Positions 1 to 26,757 of a DNA stretch of 57,934 nucleotides are shown piece by piece. The stretch is taken from contig CAZQKI010000004.1 of assembly GCA_964592855.1 (NCBI GenBank), positions 1 to 57,934 of the forward strand, written 5' to 3'. A program made the position numbers and the translations under genes. Source of the DNA: an uncultured Lentisphaerales bacterium (GTDB lineage Bacteria > Verrucomicrobiota > Kiritimatiellia > RFP12 > JAAYLN01). Position 1 is the first letter of the stretch; the number at the start of each line of letters is the position of its first letter. The notes under the pieces were generated by a model that saw nothing but the letters and a program-made list of their open reading frames with translations, was not told the DNA's origin and did not search any database.

Positions 1-596
1 TTGCTGGCCTTGACCATCTCCGTCTCGATGCCGGCCGGACAGATGCAATTCACGCGCACGCCCCGCTTGCCGCAGGCCACCGCCAGCGAACGCGTCAGCG
101 ACACCGTCGCCCCCTTGCTGGCGGTGTAGGCGTCGCAACCGGGGACACCGATGACCCCTGCGCTCGACCCCGTGTTGATCACCGACCCGCCTCCGCTCGC
201 TTCGATCAGCGGGATGCCGTATTTGCAGCAGAGGAAGACGCTGTTCAGATTGATGGCGAGGATGCGGTTCCAGGTTTCCTCCGCCAGTTCAGTCACGACG
301 CCGTCATCCTTGGCCAGGAAGACCGAGGCGTTGTTGTAGAGGATGTGCAGGGCGCCGAAGCGCGCGTGCGTGGCGGCCATCAACTGCTGGACCGAGCGGC
401 TGTCGGATACGTCGGTACGGATGAAGGCGGCCTCCCCGCCGGCCTTGCGGACCGCCGCTTCCGCGGCTTGTCCAAGTGCTTCGGAGATCTCGGCGATCAC
501 GACGCGGGCGCCTTCGCGCGCAAAAGCCGTCGCACCGGCCAGGCCGATGCCGCGACCCGCGCCGGTGATGATGGCGACCTTTCCCTTCAGCCTCAT
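1..596 (-). CDS. SDR-family short-chain dehydrogenase/reductase (partial; 3' end runs off the window)
   Basis: Reverse-strand translation from the ATG at 596-594 reads MRLKGKVAIITGAGRGIGLAGATAFAREGARVVIAEIS..., which carries the TGxxxGxG Rossmann motif. The frame stays open to position 1. The ATG overlaps the stop of the upstream gene (ATGA). Confidence 0.8.
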   Translation of the reverse strand, partial: MRLKGKVAIITGAGRGIGLAGATAFAREGARVVIAEISEALGQAAEAAVRKAGGEAAFIRTDVSDSRSVQQLMAATHARFGALHILYNNASVFLAKDDGVVTELAEETWNRILAINLNSVFLCCKYGIPLIEASGGGSVINTGSSAGVIGVPGCDAYTASKGATVSLTRSLAVACGKRGVRVNCICPAGIETEMVKAS

Positions 597-1513: not shown

Positions 1514-1514
1514 C

Positions 1515-3493: not shown

Positions 3494-3590
3494 CGCTGTC
3501 ACTCCATTTGCATTAATAAATACAACGTCAATGTTTGTAGCGTGCCAGAACAGGCGACAGACATCAAGCCCGAAACTTTCATTGCCAATC

Positions 3591-3619
3591 TTGACCCTCC
3601 CGTCTATTTCCGGCATACT
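3591..3619 (+). promoter_or_regulatory. Candidate sigma70-type promoter for the MFS transporter gene
   Basis: TTGACC (3591-3596), a 17-nt spacer, then CATACT (3614-3619). It lies in the AT-richer divergent region between 3493 and 3713. An AGGAGA Shine-Dalgarno sits 7 nt before the ATG at 3713. Confidence 0.25.
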
Positions 3620-3712
3620 CAAACCCGTTAATTCGCTGCTTCAGGCCGAACCCGACGGGCGTGTGTCCGTGGCGCACGAAAAGCGAATTCCGGTCCGTCA
3701 GGAGACCTGCGA

Positions 3713-5101
3713 ATGTCGACAACCGAAGCTCCCGCTCAAAAACCGCAACCGGTACGCTATCACGCCGGCACGCTCAGCTACACCAGGAACGGCGTGCTCA
3801 TGCTCTTCTTCTGGCTGTTGTGGGGCTACTTTGTCTATGGCTTGATGGAGATCATCCTGCCCAGCCTGCTCCCGCTGATCCTCCGGGGCCATAACGCCAC
3901 CAGCGTGCAGATCTCCTTCATCACGAGCAGCTTGAACGTCATCGGGAACATGGTCTTCAACCCGATCGTCAGCTTCGCCTCGGACCGCAGCCGCAGCCGG
4001 TTCGGGCGGCGTCGCCCGTTCATCATCTGGTCGACGCCCATGGTCGTGCTGTGCCTGGCGCTGGTTCCGTTCGGGCCTGACATCGCCCAATACCTGCAGG
4101 GGTTCGCGGCCGTGAAGAAGGTCCTCGACCTGAGCCCGATCGTGTCGCCCATTCTGTTCATCGCGGTTTTTGTGATGGGGTTCCAGGTCTTCGACACGTT
4201 CGTGGGCGCGGTCTACTACTACCTCGTGCGCGACACGGTGCCGGAGGAGTTCATCGGCCGTTTCTATGGCGTATTCCGCCTGGTCGGAGCGATCGCGCCC
4301 CTCCTCTTCAACCTCTTCATCTTCGGCCATGCGGAATCGCACATGAAGGCGATCTTCGTCGGCATCGCCGCCTTTTACGGACTGGGCATCTACCTGATGT
4401 GCTGGCGCGTGAAGGAGGGCGTGTATCCACCCCCGGAGCCATTGCCCGGGAATGCCAGCGGTCCCTGGACACGCCTGGTCGGGTCGGTCCGGCTCTACTT
4501 CGGCGATTGCTTCAGTCACCGGGTTTACTGGGCCTGTTTCCTGGCCAATGCCATGGCCTCCTGGGCCGGAGCCGCCGGCGTCTTTGCCGTCCTCTTCAAC
4601 CGCCACGAACTGGGCATTCCCCTCGCAACGCTGGGCCGGATCGGCGCCGTGAGCAGCGTCCTGACCTTGGTGATCGCCCTGCCCTGCGGCTGGCTCGCGG
4701 ACAAGCGCAGCGTGTTCAAGATCGTTCAAGTCGGCGTGCTCGTCCGGGCGGTCCTGGTGTTCACGGCCTGGATGGTTGTCCGCGATGCCAAGACACTGCT
4801 CATCATGAGCGTGTGCCTCACACTTCCCGGCATTGCGACGGGCGTGGCCCTGAGCAAGATGCAGATGGTCGTCTGGCCCCGCGAGAAATACGGTCAGTTC
4901 GGATCGGCCAACAGTGCGTTTGCCTCGCTGGGGATGATCGGCATCGCCGTTGTGGCGGCCAAGTTCGTCGACTGGATGGGCAACTACCGCGCCTACTACC
5001 TCTGGAATGCGGTCTTCAGCTTCGCCGCGGTGCCACTCTACATGTGGATGGAGATGGAGTGGAAGAAGCTGGGCGGCAAGGACCATTACACGGCGCCCTG
5101 A
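3713..5101 (+). CDS. MFS-type transporter (probable sugar/glycoside permease)
   Basis: 462-aa ORF with about 12 hydrophobic segments, a short polar N-terminus and charged inter-helix loops (SDRSRSRFGRRRP). The neighbouring genes are sugar-metabolism genes. Confidence 0.75.
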   Translation: MSTTEAPAQKPQPVRYHAGTLSYTRNGVLMLFFWLLWGYFVYGLMEIILPSLLPLILRGHNATSVQISFITSSLNVIGNMVFNPIVSFASDRSRSRFGRRRPFIIWSTPMVVLCLALVPFGPDIAQYLQGFAAVKKVLDLSPIVSPILFIAVFVMGFQVFDTFVGAVYYYLVRDTVPEEFIGRFYGVFRLVGAIAPLLFNLFIFGHAESHMKAIFVGIAAFYGLGIYLMCWRVKEGVYPPPEPLPGNASGPWTRLVGSVRLYFGDCFSHRVYWACFLANAMASWAGAAGVFAVLFNRHELGIPLATLGRIGAVSSVLTLVIALPCGWLADKRSVFKIVQVGVLVRAVLVFTAWMVVRDAKTLLIMSVCLTLPGIATGVALSKMQMVVWPREKYGQFGSANSAFASLGMIGIAVVAAKFVDWMGNYRAYYLWNAVFSFAAVPLYMWMEMEWKKLGGKDHYTAP

Positions 5102-5919
5102 GCGCCTGGCGTAGATCCGGAAGGCCGCAAATGCTGGTCGAACCAGGCGACGGCAACCGGCCAAACCTGCCGGGTCGAGGCATTTTTCGGATTGTAGACG
5201 AACCCATGGCCCGAGCCAGGGCTGGGGAGGAACTGCATGGGACGTCCGGCTCTGGCCAATGCGGCGGCAAGAAGCAACGACTGGTCATAGGGTACAGTCG
5301 CATCCTGGGGATCATGCACCAGAAGCATGGGCGCCGATGTGCCGTCCACATGCAACGCCGGCGAAGCCGCAATCCAGCTCTCCCGCTTTTCGGAAATCGG
5401 CCCGCCCATGAACGCTTCCCAATGACCCAACACCTGGCCGTAGTCCAGGGATGAAACGAGGTCATGGACGCCATGAACATCAACAACGCAGTCGACCTTG
5501 GCCGAGACGGTGTCTTCTGTGTTGTCAAGGACGCCCAGGCACGCAACCAAGTGCCCGCCCGCCGAGCTGCCCAGGGCGCCGATCCGGTTGGCGCTGATAC
5601 CGAAACGGCCCGCGTTGCGGCGGAGCCAGCGAACCGCCGATTGACAATCCACAAGCGCAGCGGGAAAGGATGCTGTCGCCGCCAACCGGTAATCGATCGT
5701 ACACGCCACGTAGCCATGCATCGAAAGACAATGGGCGTGCCACAGGAAGCTTTGCCGTTTTCCGGCATTCCATCCGCCACCATGGACCAGCAGGACCGCC
5801 GCGCCATTGCTCCGGCTCGTGTCGGGAACGTAGATGTCCGTCATCAGGTCCTGGCCTCCCGGGCTGGCGAAACACTCCGTGAAGGTTGGATCGGGCGCCG
5901 GTTTATCGAAGTCATGCAT
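5086..5919 (-). CDS. Alpha/beta-hydrolase (esterase/lipase-like)
   Basis: LLVHGGGWNAG is an HGGG oxyanion-hole motif. GSSAGGHL is a GxSxG nucleophile elbow. A C-terminal GSGHGF supplies the candidate His. Its 3' end overlaps the convergent MFS gene by 16 nt. Confidence 0.78.
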   Translation of the reverse strand: MHDFDKPAPDPTFTECFASPGGQDLMTDIYVPDTSRSNGAAVLLVHGGGWNAGKRQSFLWHAHCLSMHGYVACTIDYRLAATASFPAALVDCQSAVRWLRRNAGRFGISANRIGALGSSAGGHLVACLGVLDNTEDTVSAKVDCVVDVHGVHDLVSSLDYGQVLGHWEAFMGGPISEKRESWIAASPALHVDGTSAPMLLVHDPQDATVPYDQSLLLAAALARAGRPMQFLPSPGSGHGFVYNPKNASTRQVWPVAVAWFDQHLRPSGSTPGAQGAV

Positions 5920-6150
5920 AGTGTCACATCGTCTGTTTCTGGAATTTGAAACTCGTTGTCATTGCCAACAGTGTAATATCGCATGCGCTTCCAGATCAAG
6001 ATTGCGATTATGGCGCTTTGGCATCATCGGAACTGCCAGTCGCCCCCTGATGCGCGGAAAGGTAATGGCGCAGTTACCGGGATGTGCGATTTCATCGCAT
6101 GGACGAGGCATTTGATTTCTTGCGTGTTGCAACAAATCAATCTGCGGGGT

Positions 6151-6448
6151 TCACCACGGAGACGCGGAGTCACGGAGTCCGGGAGGGAAGGTTCACGCAA
6201 CTTCAGGCTTGGCTGACCGGCTGTTGCCGTTGAAGCAAACGGAGATGCTGCCAAGCCTGAAATTGCGTGAACACCTGGCAGGGAGCACGATCCATCGCTC
6301 ATACGCGCAGACCATTCCCGCCGACTCAATAGGGTGTTGCGTGAAGGCGCAGCCGCTGCATGCCATGCGCCGGGTCAGGCCTGGATACGCTGAAAGCGGA
6401 TGCGCCTTCACGCAACCTCTCCTCCATGTCTCCGTGCCTCCGTGGTGA
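6151..6448. repeat. Nested inverted-repeat (palindromic) element in a 680-bp non-coding gap
   Basis: The outer arms are 6151-6177 (TCACCACGGAGACGCGGAGTCACGGAG) and 6422-6448 (its imperfect reverse complement). Inner hairpin 1 pairs 6191-6213 with 6250-6272 (23 nt, 1 mismatch). Inner hairpin 2 pairs 6337-6351 with 6401-6415 (15 nt perfect, extendable to about 21). Both inner stems are based on TTGCGTGAA. Confidence 0.85.
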
Positions 6449-6600
6449 CGTTGTCGCAATGACCGAGGTTGATGGCGTGCCTTCACGGTTCGCGACCTGC
6501 TTTTCATGCTCGCATTACGCACACCCCGGTCACTGACCGCTGACGCGCAGAAAGAATGTCGGAGATTGACATGACCCTCGCGTTTTGACATTTTTCACCT

Positions 6601-9057
6601 ATGAACAATTTCAAGTCCCGCGTGACAGCCGGCAGCCTGTTCCTGGCCACCGCCATTCTCCCCGCCTCCGCCATCACGCTGGTCAAGGACGGCCAACCCG
6701 CCGCGACGATCGTAGTCTCGAAGGCCGCCTTGAACGCGACGGCCCCCAAGCCGCGCCGCGGCCTCAAGATCGAGCCGGCCCAGAAAGCCCGCCTCGCCGC
6801 GGAGGAGCTGCAGCGGGTCATCGAAAAAATGAGCGGTGCCCGGCTCCCCATCGTCGGCGAGGACGACGCCGTCCAGGGTCCCGTCGTGCTGGTGGGCTCC
6901 AGCCGGAAGACCGATCCCCTCAAGCTCGACATCCCCGCAGGCCTCACGACCGAGCGCAAGGAGGAAGGCTACCTCATTTCCGCCAAAGGCAACACCCTCG
7001 TCCTTGCCGGCAACGACGCGGGGCCCTACCAGGGAACGTTCTTCGCCGTCAGCGAATTCCTGAACCGTCAGGGCGTCCGCTGGTTCATGCCCGGCGCATT
7101 CGGCGAGTGCGTGCCGAAACGGGCGTCAATCGATCAGCCGGATCTCCTGTACCGCGACAAACCCGATTTCCCAGTCCGGAGCTGGAACGGGAACCTCGCC
7201 CCCGAACTTCGGGAAGACGACACCCTCTGGCGGCTCCACAACAAGCTCGTGATCAACGAATCGGACATCATCGCCATCCCCGGGGACGGCTATCTCCGGA
7301 AGTACATGCCCGACAAGGAGCTGATCGAGACGCACCCCGAGTATTTCGCCAAGCGGCTCGACGGAACGCCCGACCCGCACATGGTCAGCCTGAGCAACCC
7401 CGAGACGCCCCGACTCGTGGCCGAGAAGGTCAAGGCCAAGATCGCCGAGGAGCGGCTCAAGGATCCGACCTTCAACTCGCTGGGATTCGCCCCCGATGAC
7501 GGCATGCCCATCGACCTCTCCAAGGAGACGATGGCCCTGAACCAGGGATTCGCCGACCTGTGCGGCCGCGAAGGCGTGATCACCGAACGCTCGATCAGCG
7601 AAGAGTGGTTCGGCTTCATCAACAAAGTCGCGGAGGAAGTCGTGAAGGACTACCCCGATTTCATCCTCACCAGCAACGGCTACGCCAACCGGACCTTCCC
7701 CCCCGAGGGCGTCGCGCTCCACCCCAACCTGGGCATCATGTTCGCCGCCATCTGGGCCGACCTGCTCCATGCCTATGACGACCCCCGGAGCTGGCAGCAG
7801 GTGATGCAGGGCCAGATGCTCCAGCGCTGGGCCCAGCTCTGCCCGCGGGTCTTCGTCTACAACTACAATTTTCCGATGCTTGTAAACTGCCTCACCCCCT
7901 TGCCGTTGACCCGCAAGATCGCCCGCAACACGCCTTTGATGAAGAAGTGGGGCGTCTTCGGTTTCGAGGACGAGCAGACCTTCTCCTGGATGGCCCACGG
8001 CATCACGGCGTTCTACCTCCGCGCCAAGCTCTACTGGCATGCCGACGACGATGCACGGGCCATTCTCGACGACTATTTCACCGTCTGGTACGGACCGGCC
8101 GCCAAGCCCTCGCAGGCCTACTGGGAGGCCATCGAGGAGGCGCTCGAAAGCACACCCCTGCTGGGCCACGAGGATCGCATCCTCCCGTATGTCTACTCGG
8201 ACGCCCTCCTGGCGTCGATGGAAAAGAGCCAGGTCGAAGCGGAGGCACTTGCGACCGATGAGCCGTTCAAGACGCGCGTCCGCGTGGACCGCCTGATCCT
8301 CGATCATCTGAGAGGATACCTGGCGATGAACCGCGCCGAATTCACGGGCGAGTACGCCGCGGCGATCAAGCAGGCCGACCTCATGTTCCAGCAGCGCGAA
8401 CAGATCAGCGCGATCAGCGGCTTCTTCCACGTCCCCGAGAGCAAGGACCCGAGGCGGCGCTATTTCGCCGGGTCGCACTACTGGAACCTGACCCAGCGCA
8501 GGGAGTTCTATCAGAAGATGCTCGACAGGACAACCGGCACAGCGGGCGACCTGGTCGCCCGTTCAGAACGCAATGTGCCTTTCCGGCTGGACGACGCCGA
8601 CCTGGGCCGCATCGGCCGCTGGTACGACACGGACTTCGACCGTTCCGCTTGGCGGAAGATCGACACCGCCACGCCTTTTTCCCATCAGGGCGACGGCATG
8701 CGCGACGCACGCGGCGTCCCCTACGTCGGCTACATGTGGTACATCTTCGAGCTGGACGTGCCGCGGAAGGCCATCGGCAAACCGGTGCAGGCGTATGCCC
8801 CGGTCGTCACGACTGAAGCGTGGGTCTGGTGCAACGGCGAGTACGTCGGGCACCGCCCGTATTTCGAGGCCTATACCCGTCCCCAGCCGATCGATTTCGA
8901 TGTCACCCGGCAGGTGAAGGCCGGCAAGAACATCATCGCCGTGCGCGTCAACACAAGCGCCAGCCGCATCCAGGAGGCCGAAGGATTTCAAGGGCCCTTG
9001 TTCCTCTACTCGCCCAAGCCTCCGCCACCGCCGGCGGTGGCGACGCCCACACCGTAA
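6601..9057 (+). CDS. Secreted DUF4838-like glycan-active protein with a C-terminal GH2-type sugar-binding (jelly-roll) domain
   Basis: It has a signal peptide (MNNFKSRVTAGSLFLATAILPASA). ITLVKDGQPAATIVV...AAEELQRVIEKMSGARLPIV and GTFFAVSEFLNRQGVRWFMPG resemble the DUF4838 N-terminal region. The C-terminus (WYIFELDVP...VWCNGEYVGHR...FDVTRQVKAGKNIIAVRV) resembles the GH2 N-terminal sugar-binding domain. Confidence 0.65.
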   Translation: MNNFKSRVTAGSLFLATAILPASAITLVKDGQPAATIVVSKAALNATAPKPRRGLKIEPAQKARLAAEELQRVIEKMSGARLPIVGEDDAVQGPVVLVGSSRKTDPLKLDIPAGLTTERKEEGYLISAKGNTLVLAGNDAGPYQGTFFAVSEFLNRQGVRWFMPGAFGECVPKRASIDQPDLLYRDKPDFPVRSWNGNLAPELREDDTLWRLHNKLVINESDIIAIPGDGYLRKYMPDKELIETHPEYFAKRLDGTPDPHMVSLSNPETPRLVAEKVKAKIAEERLKDPTFNSLGFAPDDGMPIDLSKETMALNQGFADLCGREGVITERSISEEWFGFINKVAEEVVKDYPDFILTSNGYANRTFPPEGVALHPNLGIMFAAIWADLLHAYDDPRSWQQVMQGQMLQRWAQLCPRVFVYNYNFPMLVNCLTPLPLTRKIARNTPLMKKWGVFGFEDEQTFSWMAHGITAFYLRAKLYWHADDDARAILDDYFTVWYGPAAKPSQAYWEAIEEALESTPLLGHEDRILPYVYSDALLASMEKSQVEAEALATDEPFKTRVRVDRLILDHLRGYLAMNRAEFTGEYAAAIKQADLMFQQREQISAISGFFHVPESKDPRRRYFAGSHYWNLTQRREFYQKMLDRTTGTAGDLVARSERNVPFRLDDADLGRIGRWYDTDFDRSAWRKIDTATPFSHQGDGMRDARGVPYVGYMWYIFELDVPRKAIGKPVQAYAPVVTTEAWVWCNGEYVGHRPYFEAYTRPQPIDFDVTRQVKAGKNIIAVRVNTSASRIQEAEGFQGPLFLYSPKPPPPPAVATPTP

Positions 9058-9129
9058 AGCCTGCTTGTCGACTGTTGTTGACTTCCAGTCCATGAATTCC
9101 CGGACCGTTTCGCAGATCACTGCCCCTGA

Positions 9130-11769
9130 ATGGCGATAGGTTTCCGATTCCATATGCGCAACTTTCGCAGAGCGAGCGGCGGGCGGGCCGACAGAAACAA
9201 CGGCAAGCCGGCAACGGCACGGACGAAGCCGCCGCAGGCGTTGCCCGGAATCACGCCGCGTTCGTTGATGGCCAGCCTGTTCTGCATGCTGCTGGCGGGC
9301 ATCTTCACCCAGTACTCGATGGTTTACATCTGCGAGAACAACCAGAGCCCGGAGCAGGTTCTGCCGGTGCCGGCCATGGCGGTGCTGGTGCTGCTGGTCA
9401 TCCTCGGCGGCGGTCTGTTCACGCTCTTCAAGACGCGCCTGCTGACACGTGCGGAGATGCTGTGCGTGGTCTTCGCCATGTTCATCGCGGTCCCCTTGAT
9501 GACGCAGGGCTTCTGGCACCGCTTCCTGGGGCTGATCTCGGTGCCGATGCGCACGGCGAGCTTCGACTATCTGGACGCCTTCAACGACAATCTCTGGCCG
9601 CACGGGCCCAACCTGCTGGCGGGGCGGCTGACGCCCGGGGCGCTGGATTCGGAAGGCCAGGCGCCGGTCTGGCGCGAGGTGGAATACGAGGAGGGTCAAA
9701 GTGCCTTCCTGCCGCGGCTGTCGAACAGCACCCCGGAGTCGGTCAGTTCGCTCTCCGTGACGTTGCCGATGCGTGGGGGCGGACCGGCTGATCCCGGCAA
9801 TCCGCATCTCCTCAGCATTCTGGCGCGCACATCGGGAATGGAGACGGAAAGCGCGATCTTCTGCCGCGTCTATGTGGACGACTCCCCGACCTTCAACGAG
9901 GTTTTCACGGCGCGGCGTGCGGACCGGCGCAGCTACCTTCACAAGCTGGGGTTCGAACGTTTGGGGATCTACGGCATCCCGCTGGCGGAGCGCTGCCGGG
10001 AGCGGGTGCGCATCGAGTTTGGACTGCGCGGGCGCGGCGAGGCGGTCTTCGCCGACCCGAAGCTGATGAGCGTCCTGGCGCTCGAGGGCGCCTTCCGCGG
10101 GCGGAAGCTGATGCTGCAGTCGGAGTACGAGGCGCTGCCGGAGGCCCAGCGTCCGGCGGGCGTGGTGATCGAGCCCGACAACCTCTGGAGCCTCGCCGGG
10201 CTTCTCTTTCTGCTGAGGGGGCACATCCCGCTGCGGGAGTGGCTCCGCCCGGCCGCCGTGTGGTCGGCCTACGTGCTGCTGCTGTGCGGCGCCTTCCTCG
10301 CCGTCAACGTCATCATGCGCAAGCGGTGGGCCGAGAGCGAACGCTATCCGCTGCCGAACACGCGCATTCCGCTGCTGCTCTTCGGCGCGGAGGAAGCGGA
10401 CGACAGCCGTGCCCTCCCCTCGATCTGGCGCAACCCCTACCTGTGGGCGGGATTCGCCGTCTCGCTGAGCTGGGGCCTGCTGAAAGGATGGCATGCCTTC
10501 AACGCGCGGGTGCCCGACCTCTCCATCAACGTTGCGCTGGGTCCCTACTTCCAGAATCCCGTCTGGGGCGGGATGTTCAACGTCAATTTCATCGTCAGCG
10601 CCTTCATCGTCAGCATCGCTGTCTTCTTCGAACTGAATGTGCTGATCAGCTTCGTGATCGGCTACTGGATTGCCCGTTCGGTCTATCTGATCGGCTATTT
10701 GACCGATCTCAAGGTCAACACCGGCTATCCCTGGCAAGACCAGCAGACCATCGGCGCCTACCTGGGCTACTTTCTGATTGTGATGATCCTCTCGCGCAAG
10801 TACCTGTGGGGCGTGCTGAAGTCCGCGTTCCGGGGTGATGCGCGAGAACCCGGCGACGTCCTCTCGAACCGTGCGGCGGTGCTGCTGCTGGCGGGGTGCC
10901 ACATCGGCGTGCTGGCCTGGGCCCGTTTGGTGGATGCATCCGGCTTGAGCATGATTGTCTATTTCTGCTTCCTTGTGCTGCTGGGCTTCGTGACCGCCAA
11001 GCTCCGCGCCGAGTGCGGCATGCCCTTCGGTTACTTCACCCCTTACAACGCCATGCTGCTGGTCTCGGCGTGCGGCGGCATGGTTGTTTTTGGCGCCGAG
11101 GGGATGATGGTAGCCCTGATTCTCTCGGGGTTCCTGACCGTGACCGTCTTCTTCCTGATTCCGGGAACTCAGTTCGAGATGATCCAGGTCGGCAAGCGGA
11201 TGGGCGTCCAGCCGCGCCACCTGCTCTACACGTGTCTGCTCGGCGCGCTTGGCGGGCTTTTCATCGGCGGCTGGGTCTTTCTTTCCAACGCCTACGCCTA
11301 CGGGGGCGACAACATCCGCTTCCAGTGGGCCTTCAACGGACTGGACTGGTTCATGGCCCAATACCGGGTTTCGCTGGGGACGGCAACCTCCACCTGGCTC
11401 CGCGACACGGGGGGCATTGAGCTCGGCACGGCGGACTGGGGTCGGCGGACGACTCTGCTCTGGGGATTGATCACCATGGTCCTGACTCTGCTGCGGCAGT
11501 TCTTCTCCGGTTTCTGGTTCCATCCGATCGGCTTCATCCTGGGCAGTTCGGCCATGGACTCCGGGGCCAACTGGGGGAGTCTGCTGACGGCCTGGGCAAT
11601 TCGCGGGCTGGTGCTCAAGATCGGCGGAGCAACGGCGGTGAGGAACAAACTCCAGCCCTGCTTCGTCGGCGTCTTCCTCGGCGCCCTGACCGTGCTGCTC
11701 GTCTTCTCGGTCGTCAACAGCATCGGCGTGTCGCGCGGCGCGTCCAATCTCTATCAGGCGATTCCATGA
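9130..11769 (+). CDS. Large polytopic inner-membrane protein of unknown function (resembles DUF6785/DUF6784-type proteins, from memory)
   Basis: 879-aa ORF with more than 15 hydrophobic helices and a soluble insert of about 230 aa after the second or third helix. The start may be the ATG at 9130 or the ATG at 9154. The stop overlaps the next start (ATGA at 11766-11769). Confidence 0.7.
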   Translation: MAIGFRFHMRNFRRASGGRADRNNGKPATARTKPPQALPGITPRSLMASLFCMLLAGIFTQYSMVYICENNQSPEQVLPVPAMAVLVLLVILGGGLFTLFKTRLLTRAEMLCVVFAMFIAVPLMTQGFWHRFLGLISVPMRTASFDYLDAFNDNLWPHGPNLLAGRLTPGALDSEGQAPVWREVEYEEGQSAFLPRLSNSTPESVSSLSVTLPMRGGGPADPGNPHLLSILARTSGMETESAIFCRVYVDDSPTFNEVFTARRADRRSYLHKLGFERLGIYGIPLAERCRERVRIEFGLRGRGEAVFADPKLMSVLALEGAFRGRKLMLQSEYEALPEAQRPAGVVIEPDNLWSLAGLLFLLRGHIPLREWLRPAAVWSAYVLLLCGAFLAVNVIMRKRWAESERYPLPNTRIPLLLFGAEEADDSRALPSIWRNPYLWAGFAVSLSWGLLKGWHAFNARVPDLSINVALGPYFQNPVWGGMFNVNFIVSAFIVSIAVFFELNVLISFVIGYWIARSVYLIGYLTDLKVNTGYPWQDQQTIGAYLGYFLIVMILSRKYLWGVLKSAFRGDAREPGDVLSNRAAVLLLAGCHIGVLAWARLVDASGLSMIVYFCFLVLLGFVTAKLRAECGMPFGYFTPYNAMLLVSACGGMVVFGAEGMMVALILSGFLTVTVFFLIPGTQFEMIQVGKRMGVQPRHLLYTCLLGALGGLFIGGWVFLSNAYAYGGDNIRFQWAFNGLDWFMAQYRVSLGTATSTWLRDTGGIELGTADWGRRTTLLWGLITMVLTLLRQFFSGFWFHPIGFILGSSAMDSGANWGSLLTAWAIRGLVLKIGGATAVRNKLQPCFVGVFLGALTVLLVFSVVNSIGVSRGASNLYQAIP

Positions 11770-14700
11770 ACCTGAAGCCACCAGTCAGACGGTCATGGGT
11801 CGGGCAGGCGCCTGGAGCGGTGGCCTTCGGCCTGGCGACGCTGGCCGCGGTTGCCGCGTTCGCACTCATCTTCCGGCCGGCGCGGCAAGTCCTGACGCCG
11901 GACTTCGACCGCGCCTACGACCGCTCGGCCATGCAGCAGGCCATGATGCCGGACGCCGTGCGCGGCATGCTGGCCGGGATCGAGAAGCTCGGATCGCGAG
12001 CGCCTGGCCAGCCGGGGCATGTGGCGTTGAGCGAGCTGATTGCCGACCGCTACCGGCAGGCGGGGCTGGAGGTGCTGGAGCAGGAACTGGACACCGTGCA
12101 TCCGTTCACATCACGCGCGAGCCTGACCGTCGACGGCGTGCAGCGGGACATCCCCCTGTGGTCCGCTCCGCCCAACCACGCCCAGCCGCACGTGACGTCG
12201 CCGGAGGGGATCGAGGGCGAGTTGATGCTGGTGACGGATGAAAACATCCGCAACGGAACCGGCTTCGACGAAAAGATCGCACTCATCGATCTCGCCCATC
12301 CGGTGTTCAAGGAGCTGGGGCTTAATCCCGGGCGGTACTGCGAACTGGGCTTTCAAGCGCTGATCGTGTCGCATTCCGGAGGGTTCGACCAGATGCCCTG
12401 GAAGCGGCTGGCTGAACTGCGGCTGAACCTTCCGCTCAACTTCGTCCGGCTGGCAGCAGACCCCGCCATCCTGGACTATGCCGGAAGGCGAGTGCGCCTG
12501 GACGTGCAGGCCGCCTACGAGCAGATTCCCACCCGCAACCTGATCGGCGTGATGCGCGCATCGGGCGGACCTACGAGACGGGCCATGGTCGTGGGTGTCG
12601 CCTACGACGGCTACACGGTACTGCCCGACTTGAACCACGGGTCGCTGCAGGCGCTTCAGGTGGCGCTGCAGCTGCAACTGCTCGACGGCCTTGCACCGCA
12701 CCGCGGCCGCCTTCAGCGCGACGTGATTTTCCTGGCCACCTGCGGCGACTACATGTCCCAGAACAGCCTCGACGCGCTGCTTGCTACGCTGGGGATCGCC
12801 GGCGAGTCGGCGGTCCAGCGGGCCAGGCTGGAGGCGTGCGTGCGCGAGAACGATGCCAGCCTCGCCGCCGTGAAGGCTCTGGGGCCGTGGCTCACGGACG
12901 AAGGTTTCGTCCGCGAAGCCGAATCCAGCGATGCGCGTCTGAGGAGCCTGCCGGCGGCGGCGCGCGACTGCTTCAACGACCAGTACCGGCTGGTGCTGCG
13001 CCGGCGGGTCTTCGACGCCGCCGAAGCGCTGTTGCAGGCGCAGATCCTTTTTGAACGCAACCCCGCCGATCTGGCGGGCGAGCCCTACCACCGCTTCCTT
13101 GCCGCCAAGCAGCGCTACGACAGCCTCAACTCACTAGCGGCCCTGCCCCTGTCGCGCTATCTCAAGCGCAGGGACGCCGGATCGTTCGACCTCCCCGCCG
13201 CCTTGCGCGCCCGTTTCGGACAACTGCTCACGTTTCACGAGATGCGCGCCCGCCGACTGCGGCAGGAGCTGGCCCTGAATACTTTGCTCGGCGGCTATGA
13301 CGAACTGATGCTGCTGGCGCCCGGCCTCTGCCCCACCCTCGAACCACAGGAGCGCGAGACCATCAGCTTCTCCGGGGGCGCCGCAAATATCCCTTATGCG
13401 GAGGCCGCCAATTCATTCCGGAGCCTGCTGCAGGACGCGGTCTTTGCGCTGGGGCTCCAGAAGCAGGTGGCGATCGACTTCCGCGGCGCCCGTCACGGCA
13501 ACCAGATGGCCTCCTATCTCGCGGGCATGCCGCTCTTCGCATTCCCCTGGTCCATCCTCTCGCATCCGGGCTTTTCGGTTATTTCGCCCCGCAACGACTA
13601 CAGCAACTTCCTTTCGCCACTGCCGCTCCCCGCCGTTACCAACCTCGCCAGCATCGCCGCCTCCATGCAGGTGCTTGGCGAAGCTGCGCTGGCGGCGGCC
13701 CATGGACAGGGTCTCTTCCGGCCGCTCCAGCGCAACTACTACAACACCTACGCGCTGCGCGGCTCGATCTACGCCGCCGGGATCGGCAACGCCGTGGTTC
13801 CCAATTATCCCGTCGCGGGCGCACTGGTCTGCCGCCGGGAGGAAAGCGGATCCGAGCCGCCCCCGGGCGGCTATCAGAGCAAGAACTACTTCTTCTCCGA
13901 TCCCTATGGACGGTATGAGAAGGCGATGCTGACGTTGCCGTTCCCGAACTGGAACAACACCGCCCCGGTCGAGGCCGCCCTGTTCGCGGCCGATGGGAAG
14001 ATCACCCACTTCAAGGACAGCGGCCTGTCCGCACAGAATATCTACAGCTCACGCCAGATCACCTACGACGGCCTGCCCGCCAACCTGATCCTCTACCGCG
14101 GCAGCCCGGTGGCGATTCTGAACCGGATCAACCCGCAGTCGATGCGCAGCTTCACGGGCGTTGAATTACTGGCGGTGCGAGGTTTGGCCCCCTTCGCCAG
14201 CAAGGCCTCGTTCATCGCCGGCGCCGGGTTCCTGGAATTTGTGGATCCCAAGGCACGCTTCTTTGTCGCCCTCAAGGCCGGCGCCCCCGACAACGAGCAG
14301 GTGGCCACCACGCGTGCCTTCTGCCTGGGGACGCGCGATCCCGCCTTTGTGCCCCGTCCGGATCAGGAGATCGACGGCCCCGGCTACCTGGCGCAGGACA
14401 CCCCCCTGCTTCGCAACGTCGACGCCGAGGCCGCCGCTTCGATGGCCTTCCTGGCCGACAAGCGGCTGAACCTGCAGGCGCGCTACGGCATGGCCGACGA
14501 GATGACCGCCCGCTTTCACGCACGCAGCCGGGAGGCCATGGACACGGCCGGCCGGCCCGGCCGGAAACTGCTGGCGCGCCTCGCCGACTACCGTCAGGCC
14601 ATGTCCTACCAGATTCTCAACCATCCGGTCATACGCGGCACCATTTCCGAGGCCGTCTGGGGCATCCTCTGGTACATGGGACTGCTGGTTCCCTTCGTCT

Positions 14701-16775
14701 TCTTCTTCGAAAAGCTGGTCTTCTGCTACACCGACATCCGCAAGCAGATCACGGCGCAGGGCATCATCTTCCTGATCGTCTTCCTGCTGCTGCGCCTCCT
14801 GCATCCGGCCTTCCAGATGATCCGATCCTCGGTGATGATCCTGCTGGGATTCGTGATCATCCTGATCTCCGGCGGCATCACGATGGTGCTCTCCTCGAAA
14901 TTCCACGAGAACCTCGATGCGCTCCGGCGGATGCAGGGCGCCGTCAAGGGGGCCGAGGTGAACACGATGGGCGTCATGCTGACGGCCTTCATGCTCGGAC
15001 TCAACAACATGCACAAGCGCAAGGTCCGCACCGGCCTGACCTGCGCCACGCTGGTGCTGATGACCTTCGTGATGATCTGCTTCACCTCGGTGCAGAGCAG
15101 CATCGTGGACAAGGAGCGCGCCCTCGGCAAGGCCGCCTACCAGGGGCTGCTGCTGCGGGAGCCGCGCTTCACGCCGATCAGCGCCGGGGAGATATCGGCC
15201 CTCGACGGGCGCTATGGCGGGACGTTCACCGTCAACGAACGAATCGCACTGATGGGCCGATACGCCAACGGGCAGATGCTGGGGCAGGAACTCGAGATCG
15301 TCCAGGGCGAGGGACCGACGGCCAGTCGCCAGATCGCCAAGTCGGCACTGCTTTTCCGCACCACCGAACCGCTGCGGAACGAGATCCGGCTGCTGACCAC
15401 CAACGGCTGGTTCACCGCCGCGCAGGCCGTACGGGCGGCCGGGCCCTTTCCAATCATGCTCTCCGACAGCATGGCCGACACGCTGGGTCTCTCGCCCGCC
15501 GATGTTGACGCCGGCAGCCGGCGGGTGAAGGTCAACGGGGTGAGCTTCGATGTCCACGGCATCTTCGAAGCGGCTTCGCTGGAACAGGCGTGCGATTTCG
15601 ACGGCGACACGCTGCTGCCGTTCAACGCGGAGGCCGTGGTCAACCCGCAGGTCAGCGGCGGCAGCCTGCTGGCCGAGCGCGACAATCCGCGCATCCCCGC
15701 CGACCGGGTGATTCTGGGGATGGTGGGCGGTTTTCCCGTGCAGGTTGCCGGCGAGCTGCGGACCGTTTCCGTGGCCGTCGACATGGGCGATGCCGGATTC
15801 GCCGCCGCCAAGCGCGAGATCACAGGCTATCTCGAGCAGACGGGGCGGCAGACCTGCTACGGGCTCGATGGCACGGCCTATCTCGGTCAGCGTGCGCGCC
15901 GGAAGTCGCTGGCGGGCATGGCCGACCTGCTGATCCCGCTGGTGATCGCCGCCTTGACGGTGCTCAACACGATGAAGGGTTCGGTCTACGAACGGCGCGA
16001 CGAGATCTTCGTCTACAACGCCGTGGGGATCGCGCCGCGCTATGTCTTCTTCATGTTCGTGGCGGAGGCGCTGGTCTACGCCGTCGTTGGGGCGGTGCTC
16101 GGCTACATTCTGAGCCAGGGAACGGGGCGCGTGCTGACGGCACTCAACTGGACCGGCGGCCTCAACATGAACTTCACCTCGATCTCGACGATCTACGCCT
16201 CGCTGGCGATTGCGGCGGCCACGCTCTTTTCCACTTTCTTCCCGGCCCGGTCGGCCATGGAGATCGCCAAACCCGCTGACAATTCGGGCTGGACGCTGCC
16301 CGAGACGGAGACTGATGAACTGGCGTTCGACCTGCCCTTCACCTTCACCCACCACGACCGGATCGCCGTACTGGGATTTTTCCACAACTATTTCGTCAAT
16401 CACGGCGAAGGGAGCGCGGGGCCCTTCTTCGCGGCAGAACCGAAGCTGACGCTGAGCGAGCGCCGGGATGAACTGGCCGATGGCGCCTGCATTCCGATCC
16501 TTGAGGTGCTGGCGTGGCTCAAGCCCTTCGACCTCGGGGTGTCGCAGTTCATCGTGATCGAACTGGCCACGGATGCCGCGACGGGCGAATACATCTCCCA
16601 CATGCGGCTCCAGCGCCGGACGGGCGCGCGGGAGTCCTGGATGCGGCTGAACGCACCGCTGGTCGGGCGCATCCGCCGTCACTTCCTCCATTGGCGCGCC
16701 GTCTCGGACGAGATGAAGCAGGAGTATTACGAGCGGGCGCGGAGCCTGCTGGAAAAGCAGCACCCTTTACGCTAA
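11766..16775 (+). CDS. 1669-aa fusion protein: N-terminal TM anchor, degenerate M28-peptidase/PA-like ectodomain, unknown roughly 600-aa region, TM cluster, MacB/FtsX-type permease module, C-terminal cytoplasmic domain
   Basis: M28-like signatures: GSRAPGQPGHVALSELIADRYRQAGLEV and NLIGVMRASG...VVGVAYDGYTVLPDLNHGSLQAL. FtsX/MacB signatures: LNNMHKRKVRTGLTCATLVLMTFVMICF (TM1), an extracytoplasmic domain of about 290 aa, then YERRDEIFVYNAVGIAPRYVFFMFVAEALVYAVVGAVLGYIL plus two more TMs. Confidence 0.85.
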   Translation: MNLKPPVRRSWVGQAPGAVAFGLATLAAVAAFALIFRPARQVLTPDFDRAYDRSAMQQAMMPDAVRGMLAGIEKLGSRAPGQPGHVALSELIADRYRQAGLEVLEQELDTVHPFTSRASLTVDGVQRDIPLWSAPPNHAQPHVTSPEGIEGELMLVTDENIRNGTGFDEKIALIDLAHPVFKELGLNPGRYCELGFQALIVSHSGGFDQMPWKRLAELRLNLPLNFVRLAADPAILDYAGRRVRLDVQAAYEQIPTRNLIGVMRASGGPTRRAMVVGVAYDGYTVLPDLNHGSLQALQVALQLQLLDGLAPHRGRLQRDVIFLATCGDYMSQNSLDALLATLGIAGESAVQRARLEACVRENDASLAAVKALGPWLTDEGFVREAESSDARLRSLPAAARDCFNDQYRLVLRRRVFDAAEALLQAQILFERNPADLAGEPYHRFLAAKQRYDSLNSLAALPLSRYLKRRDAGSFDLPAALRARFGQLLTFHEMRARRLRQELALNTLLGGYDELMLLAPGLCPTLEPQERETISFSGGAANIPYAEAANSFRSLLQDAVFALGLQKQVAIDFRGARHGNQMASYLAGMPLFAFPWSILSHPGFSVISPRNDYSNFLSPLPLPAVTNLASIAASMQVLGEAALAAAHGQGLFRPLQRNYYNTYALRGSIYAAGIGNAVVPNYPVAGALVCRREESGSEPPPGGYQSKNYFFSDPYGRYEKAMLTLPFPNWNNTAPVEAALFAADGKITHFKDSGLSAQNIYSSRQITYDGLPANLILYRGSPVAILNRINPQSMRSFTGVELLAVRGLAPFASKASFIAGAGFLEFVDPKARFFVALKAGAPDNEQVATTRAFCLGTRDPAFVPRPDQEIDGPGYLAQDTPLLRNVDAEAAASMAFLADKRLNLQARYGMADEMTARFHARSREAMDTAGRPGRKLLARLADYRQAMSYQILNHPVIRGTISEAVWGILWYMGLLVPFVFFFEKLVFCYTDIRKQITAQGIIFLIVFLLLRLLHPAFQMIRSSVMILLGFVIILISGGITMVLSSKFHENLDALRRMQGAVKGAEVNTMGVMLTAFMLGLNNMHKRKVRTGLTCATLVLMTFVMICFTSVQSSIVDKERALGKAAYQGLLLREPRFTPISAGEISALDGRYGGTFTVNERIALMGRYANGQMLGQELEIVQGEGPTASRQIAKSALLFRTTEPLRNEIRLLTTNGWFTAAQAVRAAGPFPIMLSDSMADTLGLSPADVDAGSRRVKVNGVSFDVHGIFEAASLEQACDFDGDTLLPFNAEAVVNPQVSGGSLLAERDNPRIPADRVILGMVGGFPVQVAGELRTVSVAVDMGDAGFAAAKREITGYLEQTGRQTCYGLDGTAYLGQRARRKSLAGMADLLIPLVIAALTVLNTMKGSVYERRDEIFVYNAVGIAPRYVFFMFVAEALVYAVVGAVLGYILSQGTGRVLTALNWTGGLNMNFTSISTIYASLAIAAATLFSTFFPARSAMEIAKPADNSGWTLPETETDELAFDLPFTFTHHDRIAVLGFFHNYFVNHGEGSAGPFFAAEPKLTLSERRDELADGACIPILEVLAWLKPFDLGVSQFIVIELATDAATGEYISHMRLQRRTGARESWMRLNAPLVGRIRRHFLHWRAVSDEMKQEYYERARSLLEKQHPLR

Positions 16776-16818
16776 CCTACCCTTGCCTAGTCACGATTAA
16801 CGTTGCCACCCTACAACC

Positions 16819-19608
16819 ATGTCGTCCGCATCTTCACACTCGTCAACCGAGCCTGCCTTGCCGCCCTGGCAGGCGCAGACGGTCTGGGTTTCGTCGGACG
16901 CCTCCGGCGCGCTGCACATGGCGGCCTATCCCAAACTCCGCCCGGCGCAGGCCCGCTTTCTGCTGACCAACGACGCCCTTCAGCTCGCGGATCTGCTCGA
17001 GGCAAGCGCGGAGGCGGCCACGTGGTCGGTCATCGACCTGGCGGAGCTGCATCGTCTGCTGCACCCCGAGTCGGCCTCCGAAAACCTGGCCGACCTGCTT
17101 CCCGACGCCGCAGCCGACGCGCCGCCGGAAACCCGGCTTTGGCAGCTCTGGCTGCAATGCGAGGCCGATCTCGGTGCCCTGCCCCTCTGGACGCTGGAGA
17201 TGGTGGCCGCCGCCTGCCAGGAATTTGACGATCCCGCAACCGGCAAGCTGTTCCGTCTGTTTGCGGATCAGGCCGAGCGTCAGAAGAATGCCGCCCGCAA
17301 CTGGACCGCGACCTTCCTCCCCACCGTCAAACGTGTCGAACGGCCGGAACTTCCCGACCTGACCGACTGCACCGCCGTCGACGCCGGCGCGGCCGTCGCG
17401 CTCCTGGACGAAGGCGGAGCCCTCGCGCGCTGCGTTTCCGGCTATGAACCGCGTCCCGGACAGTTGATGATGGTACGCGCCGTGGTCGAGGCCATCAATG
17501 CCGGCAAGCATCTCGTGGTCGAGGCAGGAACCGGCGTCGGCAAGAGCCTGGGCTACCTCCTCCCCGCCGCGCTCTGGGCGCGCTTGAACGATGTCCCGGT
17601 GGTCATCAGCACCAACACCCGGAACTTGCAGACGCAACTCATCGAGAAGGATCTCCCCGCCGTGCAGCGGATGCTGGCGGACAGCACACCCGCGGCGGCC
17701 GATGGCCAGCCGCCCCGGCCATTGCGCACCGCCCTCATCAAGGGCCGCAGCAACTACCTGTGTCTGCGCCGGCTCGCCAACCAGATGGAGCAGGCCCAGT
17801 TTGACCTGCAACGGCGGGAGCTCCGCCAATTCGCCAGCGTCCTCTGCTGGGCGGCGCGCACCCCCGACGGCGACCTCGACACGCTGGCCAGCGGCGCCGG
17901 AGTCGACCAGGGGATTGCGGCGCAGCTCAATTCGCATGCCGACGACTGTTCCGGTCACGCCTGCAGGCTCTATCGGCGATGCTTCATCCAGAAGGCGCGC
18001 GAGAAGGCCCTGCGCGCCGATCTCATCATCGCGAACCACTCGCTGGTTTTCACCGAGCTCTCCGCAACATCGCCCATCGCCCTGCCGAAGCATGCGCAGA
18101 TCATCTTCGACGAGGCCCACAACCTCGAAGAGGCCGCCACGCGCCACTTCTCGATCGAGTGGTCGCCTTCACGCCTCAACACCTTCACGCGACGGCTGGT
18201 CACGGGACGAGGCAAGCGCCGGCGGGGCATGCTGGAAAATCTCCGCCGCCGCGTCAACAGCGGCGCGCTGCAACAGAACGAGGCGGTCTTCAACCCCCTC
18301 ATGCTGTTGATCGACGAGTCGATGGAAGGCGTCGATGCCCTCCGCAAGACCGGCACCGCGCTCTGCCGCAAGCTCCACGGCCTGCTCGCGACCGACGAGG
18401 AACCCTTGCGCTACCGGTTCGCTGCAGACCCCGCGAATCTCAAGGCGCCGCCCCCCGCGCCCACGGCAGTCTGGCAGGCCATCCGGGCGGCGCAAGCCGA
18501 ATTTCAAACGGTCGTTGAAGCTCAGATTGCGCGCCTCCAGACGATGTCCGACCTGGTTCGGCAGGGAAGCGAAGACGAACTCAACCTCCTGGCCGAGGAG
18601 ACCTCCGACATCGCCGGCGCCATGCAATCGCTGGGCGAACTCCTGCAGGATGTCACCATCGTCCTTTCCGGCCAGGACGAGGAGTCCGTCTTCTGGGTGC
18701 AGCGCGCACGCGGCCCCGAGCCGCTCGCCGAAGCGTGGGCGGCGCCGCTCAAGGTCGGACCCCGTCTGGCGAAGCACTTGTACGAAGCCAGGCGGAGCGT
18801 GATCTTCTGCTCCGCGACGTTGAGTGTCGGTGGACGCTTCACCTACATCGGCGAACGGCTGGGGCTGGACCTGATCGCCGCCGACCGCTTCCTCACCTGC
18901 ATCGCCCCGAGTCCCTTCGACTACGTGCGCCAATGCACCCTGCTGGTGCCCGCCTATCTGCCCGAACCGAATGCCATGGACCGCTCCTACGTTGCGGAAC
19001 TGGCCAATCTCATCCGCCAGGTAGCAACCCGTATGGAGGGGCGCACCCTCTGTCTGTTCACCAGCTACGACATGCTCCGCCAGTGCGCGCATCTGATTGA
19101 ACCTGAACTGCAAGAACACGGCATCCGCCTGCTGGTGCACGGCGAAAGCGGCTCACGCGACCTCATCCTGCGCACGTTCCGCAAGGGCGAGCGCTGCGTG
19201 CTGCTCGGCACACACTCCTTCTGGGAGGGGGTGGACGTCGTGGGCGACGCCCTTTCCTGCGTGATTCTCGCACGCCTCCCCTTCGCTTCGCCCAACGACC
19301 CCGTGGTCAGCGCCCGCTGCGAACAGATCGACAACGAAGGGCAAAGCGCCTTTCGTTCGCTCTCCCTCCCCGCGGCCGTACTGCGCCTGCGCCAGGGCTT
19401 CGGACGCCTGATCCGCCACCGCAGCGATCACGGGTTGGTGATCGTCGCGGACACGCGCATCCTGACGAAGAACTACGGCGGCACCTTCCGCAGGAGCCTC
19501 CCCTGTCCCACGCTCGCCTGCGACGACAGCGACGGCTTCATGGCGCGTGTGGCATCCTGCACCGAAGCCATCAACGCCCTTTCATCGTCAAAGCGCGGCG
19601 ACGTTTAG
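16819..19608 (+). CDS. dinG: DinG/XPD-family Fe-S ATP-dependent DNA helicase with an N-terminal extension of about 200 aa
   Basis: GYEPRPGQLMMVRAV...VVEAGTGVGKSLGYLLPA is the Walker A region. DEAHNLEEA is the DEAH box. Cys pattern LCLRRL...DDCSGHACRLYRRC (C-X4-C-X5-C) matches the DinG Fe-S cluster spacing. C-terminal helicase motifs are LGTHSFWEGVD and RLRQGFGRLIRHRSDHG. Confidence 0.9.
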   Translation: MSSASSHSSTEPALPPWQAQTVWVSSDASGALHMAAYPKLRPAQARFLLTNDALQLADLLEASAEAATWSVIDLAELHRLLHPESASENLADLLPDAAADAPPETRLWQLWLQCEADLGALPLWTLEMVAAACQEFDDPATGKLFRLFADQAERQKNAARNWTATFLPTVKRVERPELPDLTDCTAVDAGAAVALLDEGGALARCVSGYEPRPGQLMMVRAVVEAINAGKHLVVEAGTGVGKSLGYLLPAALWARLNDVPVVISTNTRNLQTQLIEKDLPAVQRMLADSTPAAADGQPPRPLRTALIKGRSNYLCLRRLANQMEQAQFDLQRRELRQFASVLCWAARTPDGDLDTLASGAGVDQGIAAQLNSHADDCSGHACRLYRRCFIQKAREKALRADLIIANHSLVFTELSATSPIALPKHAQIIFDEAHNLEEAATRHFSIEWSPSRLNTFTRRLVTGRGKRRRGMLENLRRRVNSGALQQNEAVFNPLMLLIDESMEGVDALRKTGTALCRKLHGLLATDEEPLRYRFAADPANLKAPPPAPTAVWQAIRAAQAEFQTVVEAQIARLQTMSDLVRQGSEDELNLLAEETSDIAGAMQSLGELLQDVTIVLSGQDEESVFWVQRARGPEPLAEAWAAPLKVGPRLAKHLYEARRSVIFCSATLSVGGRFTYIGERLGLDLIAADRFLTCIAPSPFDYVRQCTLLVPAYLPEPNAMDRSYVAELANLIRQVATRMEGRTLCLFTSYDMLRQCAHLIEPELQEHGIRLLVHGESGSRDLILRTFRKGERCVLLGTHSFWEGVDVVGDALSCVILARLPFASPNDPVVSARCEQIDNEGQSAFRSLSLPAAVLRLRQGFGRLIRHRSDHGLVIVADTRILTKNYGGTFRRSLPCPTLACDDSDGFMARVASCTEAINALSSSKRGDV

Positions 19609-26626: not shown

Positions 26627-26757
26627 CGGTTCCCACGGCAGTTACCCGAGTGTTTATCGGAGCGAAGCCGCGCGGCAGGCTGATATCTTGCGGGCGGCGG
26701 AGGGGACGCGGAGGGTGGGCTGGCATATTAACTGCTTCAAGGATGCACACCTGTTCC

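Follow-up and report, generated by a model that had tools for sequence, protein, structure and literature searches.

The stretch of DNA analyzed here (the window, 57,934 nucleotides of a contig from an uncultured Lentisphaerales bacterium) carries three co-directional genes, designated A, B and C (Table 1). B and C form a conserved pair that in most relatives opens a six-gene operon, B-C-D-E-F-G, which is an uncharacterized variant among ABC (ATP-binding cassette) systems of type VII, and A is a strain-variable neighbor. All three reading frames show a third-position GC content (GC3) of 0.86–0.87 against a second-position value (GC2) of 0.43–0.46, as in true genes of 64% GC DNA. The first-pass annotation had described three co-directional open reading frames (ORFs) with a 72-nucleotide gap between A and B and an ATGA overlap between B and C, and the ORF list and the sequence agree with it exactly. 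The −4 nucleotide spacing is the commonest B/C junction over related loci and is also called in L003, L117 and L002 (L numbers designate loci of relatives, P numbers proteins). An alternative public call of the C start (P0001) lies 18 codons further in. The start at ATG 11766 is accepted because homologs share the N-terminal residues (M1 does not vary in 12/12 aligned homologs, and the N-terminus is also kept in L117) and because it gives the modal −4 overlap.

Table 1. Features of the A-B-C locus in window coordinates (TM, transmembrane helix; residue numbers refer to the protein named).
Feature	Position	Strand	Size or basis
Gene A	6601..9057	+	818 aa
Gene B	9130..11769	+	879 aa
Gene C	11766..16775	+	1669 aa
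ATGA shared by B stop and C start	11766..11769	+	direct sequence reading
Insertion relative to L117, carrying A and its upstream region	6002..9127	.	blastn; homology restarts 2 nt before the B ATG
Predicted extracytoplasmic beta-sandwich (CBM/jelly-roll-like) insert in B, ~residues 170–315	9637..10074	+	AF2 strand-rich block 173–314
PA/M28-aminopeptidase-like domain of C, ~37–350	11874..12815	+	profile match YwaD 6hc6 E 7e-5; Foldseek
Rest of C ectodomain, ~351–960: long helical ~351–530, then beta-rich	12816..14645	+	AF2 confident only to ~530
Three additional TM helices of C, ~961–1045, linking ectodomain and FtsX module	14646..14900	+	hydropathy; 81–89% identical to full-operon copies
FtsX/MacB-type module of C: TM1 1091–1109, periplasmic ~270 aa 1110–1380, TM2–TM4 1382–1492	15036..16265	+	Pfam, hydropathy, MacB alignment
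TM2–TM3 cytoplasmic loop of C, NTMKGSVYERRDEIFVYNAVGIAP, residues 1401–1424	15966..16037	+	alignment
C-terminal cytoplasmic domain of C, ~170 aa	16266..16772	+	many invariant columns

Gene C supplies the link to the MacB/FtsX superfamily. Its FtsX domain (PF02687) scores 51.4 bits in Pfam against a cutoff of 25.5 (residues 1391–1498), and a profile of C run against the PDB matches MacB (5nik, E 1.7e-9, query 1252–1494), with YtrF second and LolC/F also retrieved. These two lines of evidence substantiate the bona fide MacB/FtsX-type module reported at first pass. The MacB match covers TM2 to TM4 and part of the periplasmic domain. The ~270-residue segment between TM1 and TM2 sits where type VII permeases carry a large extracytoplasmic domain with a Porter subdomain, and its C-terminal part aligns in sequence with the MacB periplasmic domain from query residue 1252. 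Hydropathy analysis places an N-terminal helix (TM0, residues 18–36) before the ectodomain (~37–960), followed by three additional helices (963–1041) and TM1 of the FtsX module (1091–1109). TM2 and TM3 are clear hydropathy peaks, and TM4 (~1470–1492) was positioned through the MacB alignment. The cytoplasmic loop between TM2 and TM3 is almost invariant in 72/72 aligned C proteins, whether or not ATPase genes lie adjacent. Within it, SVYERRDEIFVYNAVGIAP aligns with SVTERTREIGIRMAVGA of MacB, and the coupling-helix motif ER-x-x-EI is common to both proteins. In MacB-type transporters, this loop holds the ‘major coupling helix’ that contacts the ATPase, and mechanotransmission is the paradigm for MacB (PMC5985334).

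The module is followed by a C-terminal cytoplasmic domain for which neither Pfam nor the PDB returned a match. Its invariant columns include W1584, P1587, D1589, W1643 and R1644, and it is 54–77% identical over the family and 30% identical to the outlier P0014; it is missing from E, the small FtsX protein of the operon. Three assignments to named families were tried and rejected. FtsX proper, as in FtsEX, is scored far below threshold (TIGR00439, 25.2 bits against 255; NF038346, 25.2 against 250) and no ftsE is adjacent; MacB of the MacAB-TolC type is equally distant (NF007826, 32.8 bits against 966), and C has no nucleotide-binding domain (NBD); as for LolC/LolE, C and E reach 20 and 37 bits against cutoffs of 360–540. 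Judged by its profile matches, C is a predicted giant type VII ABC (MacB/FtsX superfamily) permease fusion that stands outside every characterized system.

The N-terminal part of the C ectodomain resembles the M28 aminopeptidases. In addition to the profile match to YwaD, a Foldseek search with the confident part of the structural model retrieves PaAP (8ack, E 5e-9), as well as BSAP and GCPII (5e-9 to 1e-6). The distant family member P0014 has a Pfam Peptidase_M28 match, and window C falls under the Pfam threshold for the same family. In the alignment of C with YwaD, AHYDS becomes A-YDG and GAEELG becomes CGDYMS, so that the His that binds zinc and the two adjacent Glu are replaced, and no invariant His or Glu occurs in residues 37–350 across 12 aligned homologs. 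M28 peptidases use His, Asp, Glu, Asp and His as co-catalytic zinc ligands, together with a catalytic Glu; because canonical residues of this set are missing, the domain is filed as a pseudo-peptidase, one that probably acts as a binding domain. The idea of a fused pseudo-enzyme ectodomain, put forward from the sequence alone, is thus borne out by a recognizable PA/M28 fold with its catalytic residues replaced. The remainder of the ectodomain (~351–960) has no Pfam match and no PDB sequence match. The AlphaFold2 (AF2) model of residues 30–1115 was built on a 9-sequence alignment; it is unreliable beyond residue ~530 and was left uninterpreted there.

Gene B encodes the membrane partner. It matches DUF6785 (210.2 bits, cutoff 25) and DUF6784 (52.9 bits, cutoff 26.4), so that these first-pass calls, like those of DUF4838 for A and FtsX for C, all lie above Pfam cutoffs. 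The AF2 model of B (predicted local distance difference test, pLDDT, 88.8; predicted template modeling score, pTM, 0.89) finds barley Yellow Stripe 1 (HvYS1, 7wst/7wsr) as its top Foldseek match, with an E value of 5.5e-7 over 866 alignment columns and a TM-score of 0.70 normalized to the target. At the sequence level, B has no Pfam OPT (PF03169) match, and its profile has no PDB sequence match. B is thus a polytopic membrane protein with a predicted OPT/YSL-type transporter fold. The strand-rich insert is modeled as an extracytoplasmic domain resembling a carbohydrate-binding module (CBM), and Foldseek matches it, with E values no better than 2.6e-4, to TmCBM61 (2xom), CBM16, and the MAM and ephrin ligand-binding domains. 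A 1072-residue ORF runs antisense over gene B (8563–11781, minus strand); like the shadow ORFs in relatives, it is a high-GC artifact and not a gene.

Genomic neighborhood analysis reveals that the B-C pair is part of a larger conserved unit. Searching species-representative genomes with an alignment of C gave 149 relatives, from Lentisphaerota, Kiritimatiellia, Verrucomicrobiota, Planctomycetota, Sumerlaeota and Myxococcota, and 80 of these were retained. At 54/56 assessable loci, B is found upstream of C, usually with the four-nucleotide overlap, in line with the tight B-C coupling proposed at first pass. A protein of ~700 residues, D, is encoded directly after C (54/65 assessable loci), and the complete D-E-F-G set is present at 33 of the 42 loci with enough flanking sequence. 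The resulting gene order is B-C-D-E-F-G, in which E stands for a ~345-residue FtsX permease and the last two genes, F and G, for ABC ATPases; independent look-ups retrieved a matching operon at L001, L004, L005–7, L009–12, L093, L094 and L101–107. The first-pass annotation had pictured an FtsX module working with no ATPase, a claim that it tied to the lack of such a gene beside C in relatives. There, at the frequencies just given, C is trailed by D, E and two LolD/MacB-type ATPases, and the claim is not upheld.

The best models for F and G are LolD (221 and 240 bits), MacB, FtsE and YbbA. The two proteins are close paralogs (51–58% identical), and with intact Walker A, LSGGQ, Walker B-DE and H-loop motifs in each, both are apparently competent LolD/MacB-type ATPases. 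D has a sole PDB sequence match, HvYS1 (E 4e-5), and 5/32 D members match Pfam OPT, which marks D as a divergent OPT/YSL-like membrane protein. It has >1863 homologs and retains ~58% identity across phyla; source annotations place D-type proteins also in Armatimonadota and Hydrogenedentes. The operon order is pseudo-symmetric: an OPT-like protein followed by an FtsX protein, twice, and then two NBDs. Neither the precomputed annotation nor our own scans returned an adaptor-like Pfam match among the six genes, and no description of a B-C-D-E-F-G system was found in the literature on DUF6785/6784, on OPT with FtsX, or on M28 with FtsX.

Several loci show additions around this core. A PqqD-like gene directly follows G in L001, L015 and L019, and it might be a seventh member with a loose tie to the rest. 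In L009–L012, a type II restriction-modification pair (DNA_methylase and RE_EcoO109I; for example L009 14732–16656) lies between G and the small PqqD-like gene. Additional DUF6785 genes also occur: L009 carries two in tandem upstream of C (1–4990; 863 and 721 residues), and in L048 B-like genes flank C on both sides (7538–9823 and 15772–18057).

The window itself ends this series of genes at C. A six-frame regular-expression search of the whole window found no ORF with Walker A and LSGGQ, tblastn of the window with the D, E, F and G proteins of relatives gave zero matches, and Pfam scans of its other large ORFs found no D-G-type partner of B-C, the other genes being housekeeping or of unknown function. 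The first-pass observation that the window encodes no ABC ATPase is therefore correct as such. The same state recurs elsewhere: 11/65 assessable reference loci have B and C only, and an ABC ATPase gene is missing up to 10 kb from each of them. In the tree of C, such loci split into five or more distinct groups that branch among clades with full operons; in genome JABMPG, for instance, the C of L034, which lacks D, is sister to the C of the full operon L026. No further gene beyond B, C and the shadow ORFs is common to these loci. Some genomes hold several of them, at least three in Ca. Moanabacter (CBDDCD) and two in JAZQOA. Loci with B and C only are thus a real, recurrent sub-class.

The window belongs to a clade with L117, L013 and L014, all of which have B and C only; the closest match to window C among GTDB representatives is 79% identical, the amino acid identity of L013 and L014. 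The closest reference genome, CAYPJN, carries the window-type L014 together with a second C paralog, L039. The latter is 95.5% identical to P0010, and in L094 and L102 D-E is directly preceded by C copies that share 92–99% identity with P0010. Across 60 D-linked C proteins, 132 columns show conservation of 95% or more; window C keeps 131 of them, and its coupling loop is unchanged. Relative to the D-linked copies, its TM segments and coupling loop are 81–94% identical and its ectodomains 42–63%. Compared with L117, B has a dN/dS of 0.11, and the start of C one of 0.23. The lineage with B and C only is under purifying selection.

The converse arrangement also exists, in that D-E-F-G stands alone, without B-C, at L095, L096, L098, L115 and L116. 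At these stand-alone loci, D occurs in a ‘long’ form of 739–755 residues. A gene for an enhancer-binding protein with FHA, sigma-54-activator and HTH_8 domains lies on the same strand just upstream of D-E-F-G in L095 (3776–5161), L098 (6501–7886) and L115/L116 (7521–8900), and in L098 a 1005-residue Ser/Thr kinase is encoded divergently upstream (3512–6529, minus strand), which suggests that this operon is under phospho-signaling and sigma-54 control.

The reading that best suits loci with B and C only is that of satellite copies, not of ATPase-independent devices. For the window, a functional satellite copy that needs an ATPase in trans is preferred because the coupling loop and 131/132 conserved positions are kept, dN/dS is low in both genes, the clades are nested among full-operon clades, a second C paralog occurs in the closest genome, and stand-alone D-E-F-G loci exist. 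Membership of window C in the superfamily is accepted on the understanding that its ATPase is supplied in trans, which we infer, and the local lack of an ATPase is explained by fission of the locus. The diverged ectodomains and conserved membrane core further suggest that satellite B-C pairs may be alternative specificity modules on a shared motor.

Gene A stands apart from this module. It matches DUF4838 (PF16126) at 122.9 bits against a cutoff of 26.6 (E 2e-35) and, in its C-terminal region, Glyco_hydro_2_N (E 1.3e-8), indicating a GH2_N-like sugar-binding domain followed by a Pro-rich tail; its N-terminus is signal-peptide-like. In the glycoside hydrolase families GH163 and GH185, DUF4838 forms the catalytic domain (PMC10570127). 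A is plausibly a secreted GH20-like glycoside hydrolase of the GH163/GH185 type. It is found beside B-C at 0/80 reference-genome loci, nor does it occur there at the other loci reached by protein look-up. The most direct evidence comes from L117, a relative ~92–95% identical in DNA, whose B is 96% identical to window B. There, as in the window, transketolase, GFO/IDH oxidoreductase and esterase genes lie upstream, and they are followed by B-C directly, without A. By blastn, L117 4545–5418 corresponds to window 5128–6001 and L117 5638–9622 to window 9128–13133. The intervening window segment (Table 1) is an insertion, because the same flanks in L117 lead directly into B.

A is therefore a strain-variable neighboring carbohydrate-active enzyme (CAZyme), brought by an unrelated recent insertion and lying outside the B-C module. 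Of the first-pass proposals, conserved neighborhood holds for the B-C pair and not for the trio with A: A is missing at 80/80 reference loci and in L117, which removes the three-gene module as proposed and, with it, the role of A as a glycan-active partner, for which no conserved link to B-C exists. A second insertion relative to L117 (window 3644–5127) carries a gene for a major facilitator superfamily (MFS) transporter (3713–5101), which overlaps the 3′ end of the opposite-strand esterase gene.

Taken together, the evidence makes it likely that B-C is the translationally coupled first half of a type VII ABC six-gene system, that the window lineage holds a satellite copy split from D-E-F-G, and that A is an inserted ordinary CAZyme. 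In such a system, C would dock F/G-type ATPases encoded elsewhere in the genome and would probably act with E, as LolC pairs with LolE. By analogy with the mechanotransmission of MacB, LolCDE and YbbAP, the coupling loop and stalk helices would relay ATP-driven NBD dimerization and hydrolysis to the periplasmic and M28-like domains of C. The dead M28/PA domain may serve as a binding module by which a peptide- or glycopeptide-like envelope substrate is captured or handed over, and B, with its OPT fold, could provide the membrane conduit or acceptor for it.

A number of observations weigh against this reading. The D-E-F-G locus in the organism of the window is inferred rather than observed: a pattern-based metagenome scan for a close D yielded nothing from Ga0485165, the sample of the window, and for most genomes with B-C-only loci, including the near-complete CBDDCD with three copies and JAZQOA with two, the 80 retained loci show no ATPase-linked copy. 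That B physically joins C, that C joins E and that either joins F/G is read from genes, and other stoichiometries, such as homodimers (C2 and E2), would fit the data just as well. About 430 residues of the C ectodomain have no confident model. The kinship of B and D is likewise thin, since BLASTP finds no match between them and hhalign gives a probability of 12.6%, although an ER-x-P-x-P motif is common to both; B-D paralogy was accordingly dropped, and only a common fold class is claimed.

The opposite reading is that B-C, together with A, is a self-contained ATPase-independent device whose FtsX module acts as a passive scaffold or signal transducer. In its favor, an ABC ATPase is encoded neither in the 57.9-kb window nor within 10 kb of the 11 B-C-only loci, and some genomes hold two or three such loci. 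We consider it quite improbable: had coupling been lost, the loop and the 131/132 retained positions should have relaxed, the B-C-only state is polyphyletic and recent, at least two genomes add a second C copy (L026 in a full operon, and L039 of a lineage found in full operons elsewhere), stand-alone motors exist, and A is a strain-level insertion. Intact reading frames of 879 and 1669 codons, the dN/dS values against a relative 92% identical in DNA, the architecture kept in L013 and L014 and the invariant residues retained in window C leave even less room for a decaying, functionless remnant of a broken operon, which we regard as very improbable despite the separation of B-C from D-E-F-G and the unrelated DinG-type gene that begins only 43 nucleotides after C.

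The composition of the six-gene system admits another reading, in which it comprises two separate transporters (one of them, say, C2 plus one ATPase and the second E2 plus the remaining ATPase, both having an OPT-like partner), so that window C would need one ATPase in trans. The pseudo-symmetric gene order fits this arrangement, as does the rank of YtrF as second-best PDB match of C, given that the Ytr operon of B. subtilis combines two NBDs with additional membrane proteins. Stand-alone D-E loci, however, always carry both F and G, a better fit to an F-G heterodimer, and the close paralogy of F and G is that of heterodimeric NBD pairs; two transporters are unlikely on this showing, if less so than the alternatives above. 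There is finally the proposal that A-B-C forms a new functional unit in this strain, a co-transcribed glycosidase supplying or processing a glycan substrate. The short A-B spacing, the lack of a terminator-like site and the CBM-like external domain predicted in B speak for it. The promoter/terminator scans around A/B and C/DinG that found no sites are, however, uninformative for this phylum, and A is missing in every other lineage, near-identical L117 included. Lentisphaerota genomes are rich in CAZymes, which makes a chance neighbor likely, and we give the A-B-C unit little credence.

Beyond the satellite reading of B-C, a broader proposal can be put forward tentatively, at somewhat less than an even chance: OPT/YSL-fold proteins would be obligate partners of MacB/FtsX-type permeases, in a widespread machine of two OPT-like proteins, two FtsX proteins and two NBDs, and satellite B-C pairs would be exchangeable cartridges for the D-E-F-G motor, in the manner of the S components of energy-coupling factor (ECF) transporters.

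The gene downstream of C (16819–19608) encodes a DinG/YoaA-type DNA helicase (NF053712, 548 bits; NF005981, 540 bits, both under the equivalog cutoffs) with ~200 additional N-terminal residues, and has no connection with the pair. Between 42000 and 46500, GC content falls to 0.56–0.59 from ~0.64 elsewhere, and the ORFs at 43024–43908, 43919–45025 (with a GHSRLGKT P-loop) and 45216–46511 (GC3 only 0.60) may be foreign DNA. Four further ORFs with coding-type GC3, at 26650–28749, 46636–49419, 49592–52375 and 52726–55635 (699, 927, 927 and 969 residues), have no Pfam match or only sub-threshold ones (GH42M, G8); the two of 927 residues adjoin each other.

Type VII ABC systems (MacB, LolCDE, FtsEX, YbbAP) convert cytoplasmic ATP into mechanical work in the envelope, and few functional types are known. 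The combination of MacB-type permeases, OPT-fold membrane proteins and a dead aminopeptidase ectodomain has not previously been reported. If the six proteins form one complex, they would represent a new functional class in the superfamily and the first functional context for DUF6785/DUF6784; the ~58% identity of D across phyla argues for an important conserved function. The locus also carries a lesson for annotation, as an ATPase missing locally does not equal an ATPase-independent system, and both halves occur as separate loci.

A functional analogy, and only that, is offered by the group II ECF transporters, in which two different ATPases and a constant membrane component are encoded together, and specificity components at scattered loci share this motor. 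Satellite B-C loci and stand-alone D-E-F-G loci parallel this organization; the folds are unrelated, and a motor shared by B-C and D-E-F-G is a proposal. The OPT/YSL proteins known to date act on their own, as proton-coupled secondary transporters. The membrane domain of the B model superposes on HvYS1 (7wst), and D matches HvYS1 and Pfam OPT by sequence. Unlike these transporters, B and D share an operon with ABC components, and B has the CBM-like insert.

For TM2–TM4 of C and part of its periplasmic domain, MacB gives the best match in both structure and sequence, and it shares the ER-x-x-EI coupling helix of C, whereas it differs in its N-terminal fused NBD, its MacA adaptor and its use of TolC. 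Type VII motors coupled to extracytoplasmic hydrolase-fold proteins are represented by YbbAP-TesA (PMC12646458) and FtsEX-EnvC (PMC7668044). These systems likewise join an ABC motor to an extracytoplasmic hydrolase fold, and YbbP also exceeds the basic four TM helices. In C, by contrast, the hydrolase fold is fused to the permease and apparently dead, and the partners are predicted OPT-fold membrane proteins rather than soluble enzymes. LolCDE resembles the six-gene system in having two different FtsX/MacB-type four-TM permeases with periplasmic domains, separate LolD-type ATPases and no membrane-fusion adaptor. Unlike LolCDE, which uses two copies of one ATPase, the six-gene system encodes two paralogous ATPases, and it adds what LolCDE lacks: OPT-fold partners, a ~925-residue M28-like ectodomain, additional TM helices and a C-terminal cytoplasmic domain.

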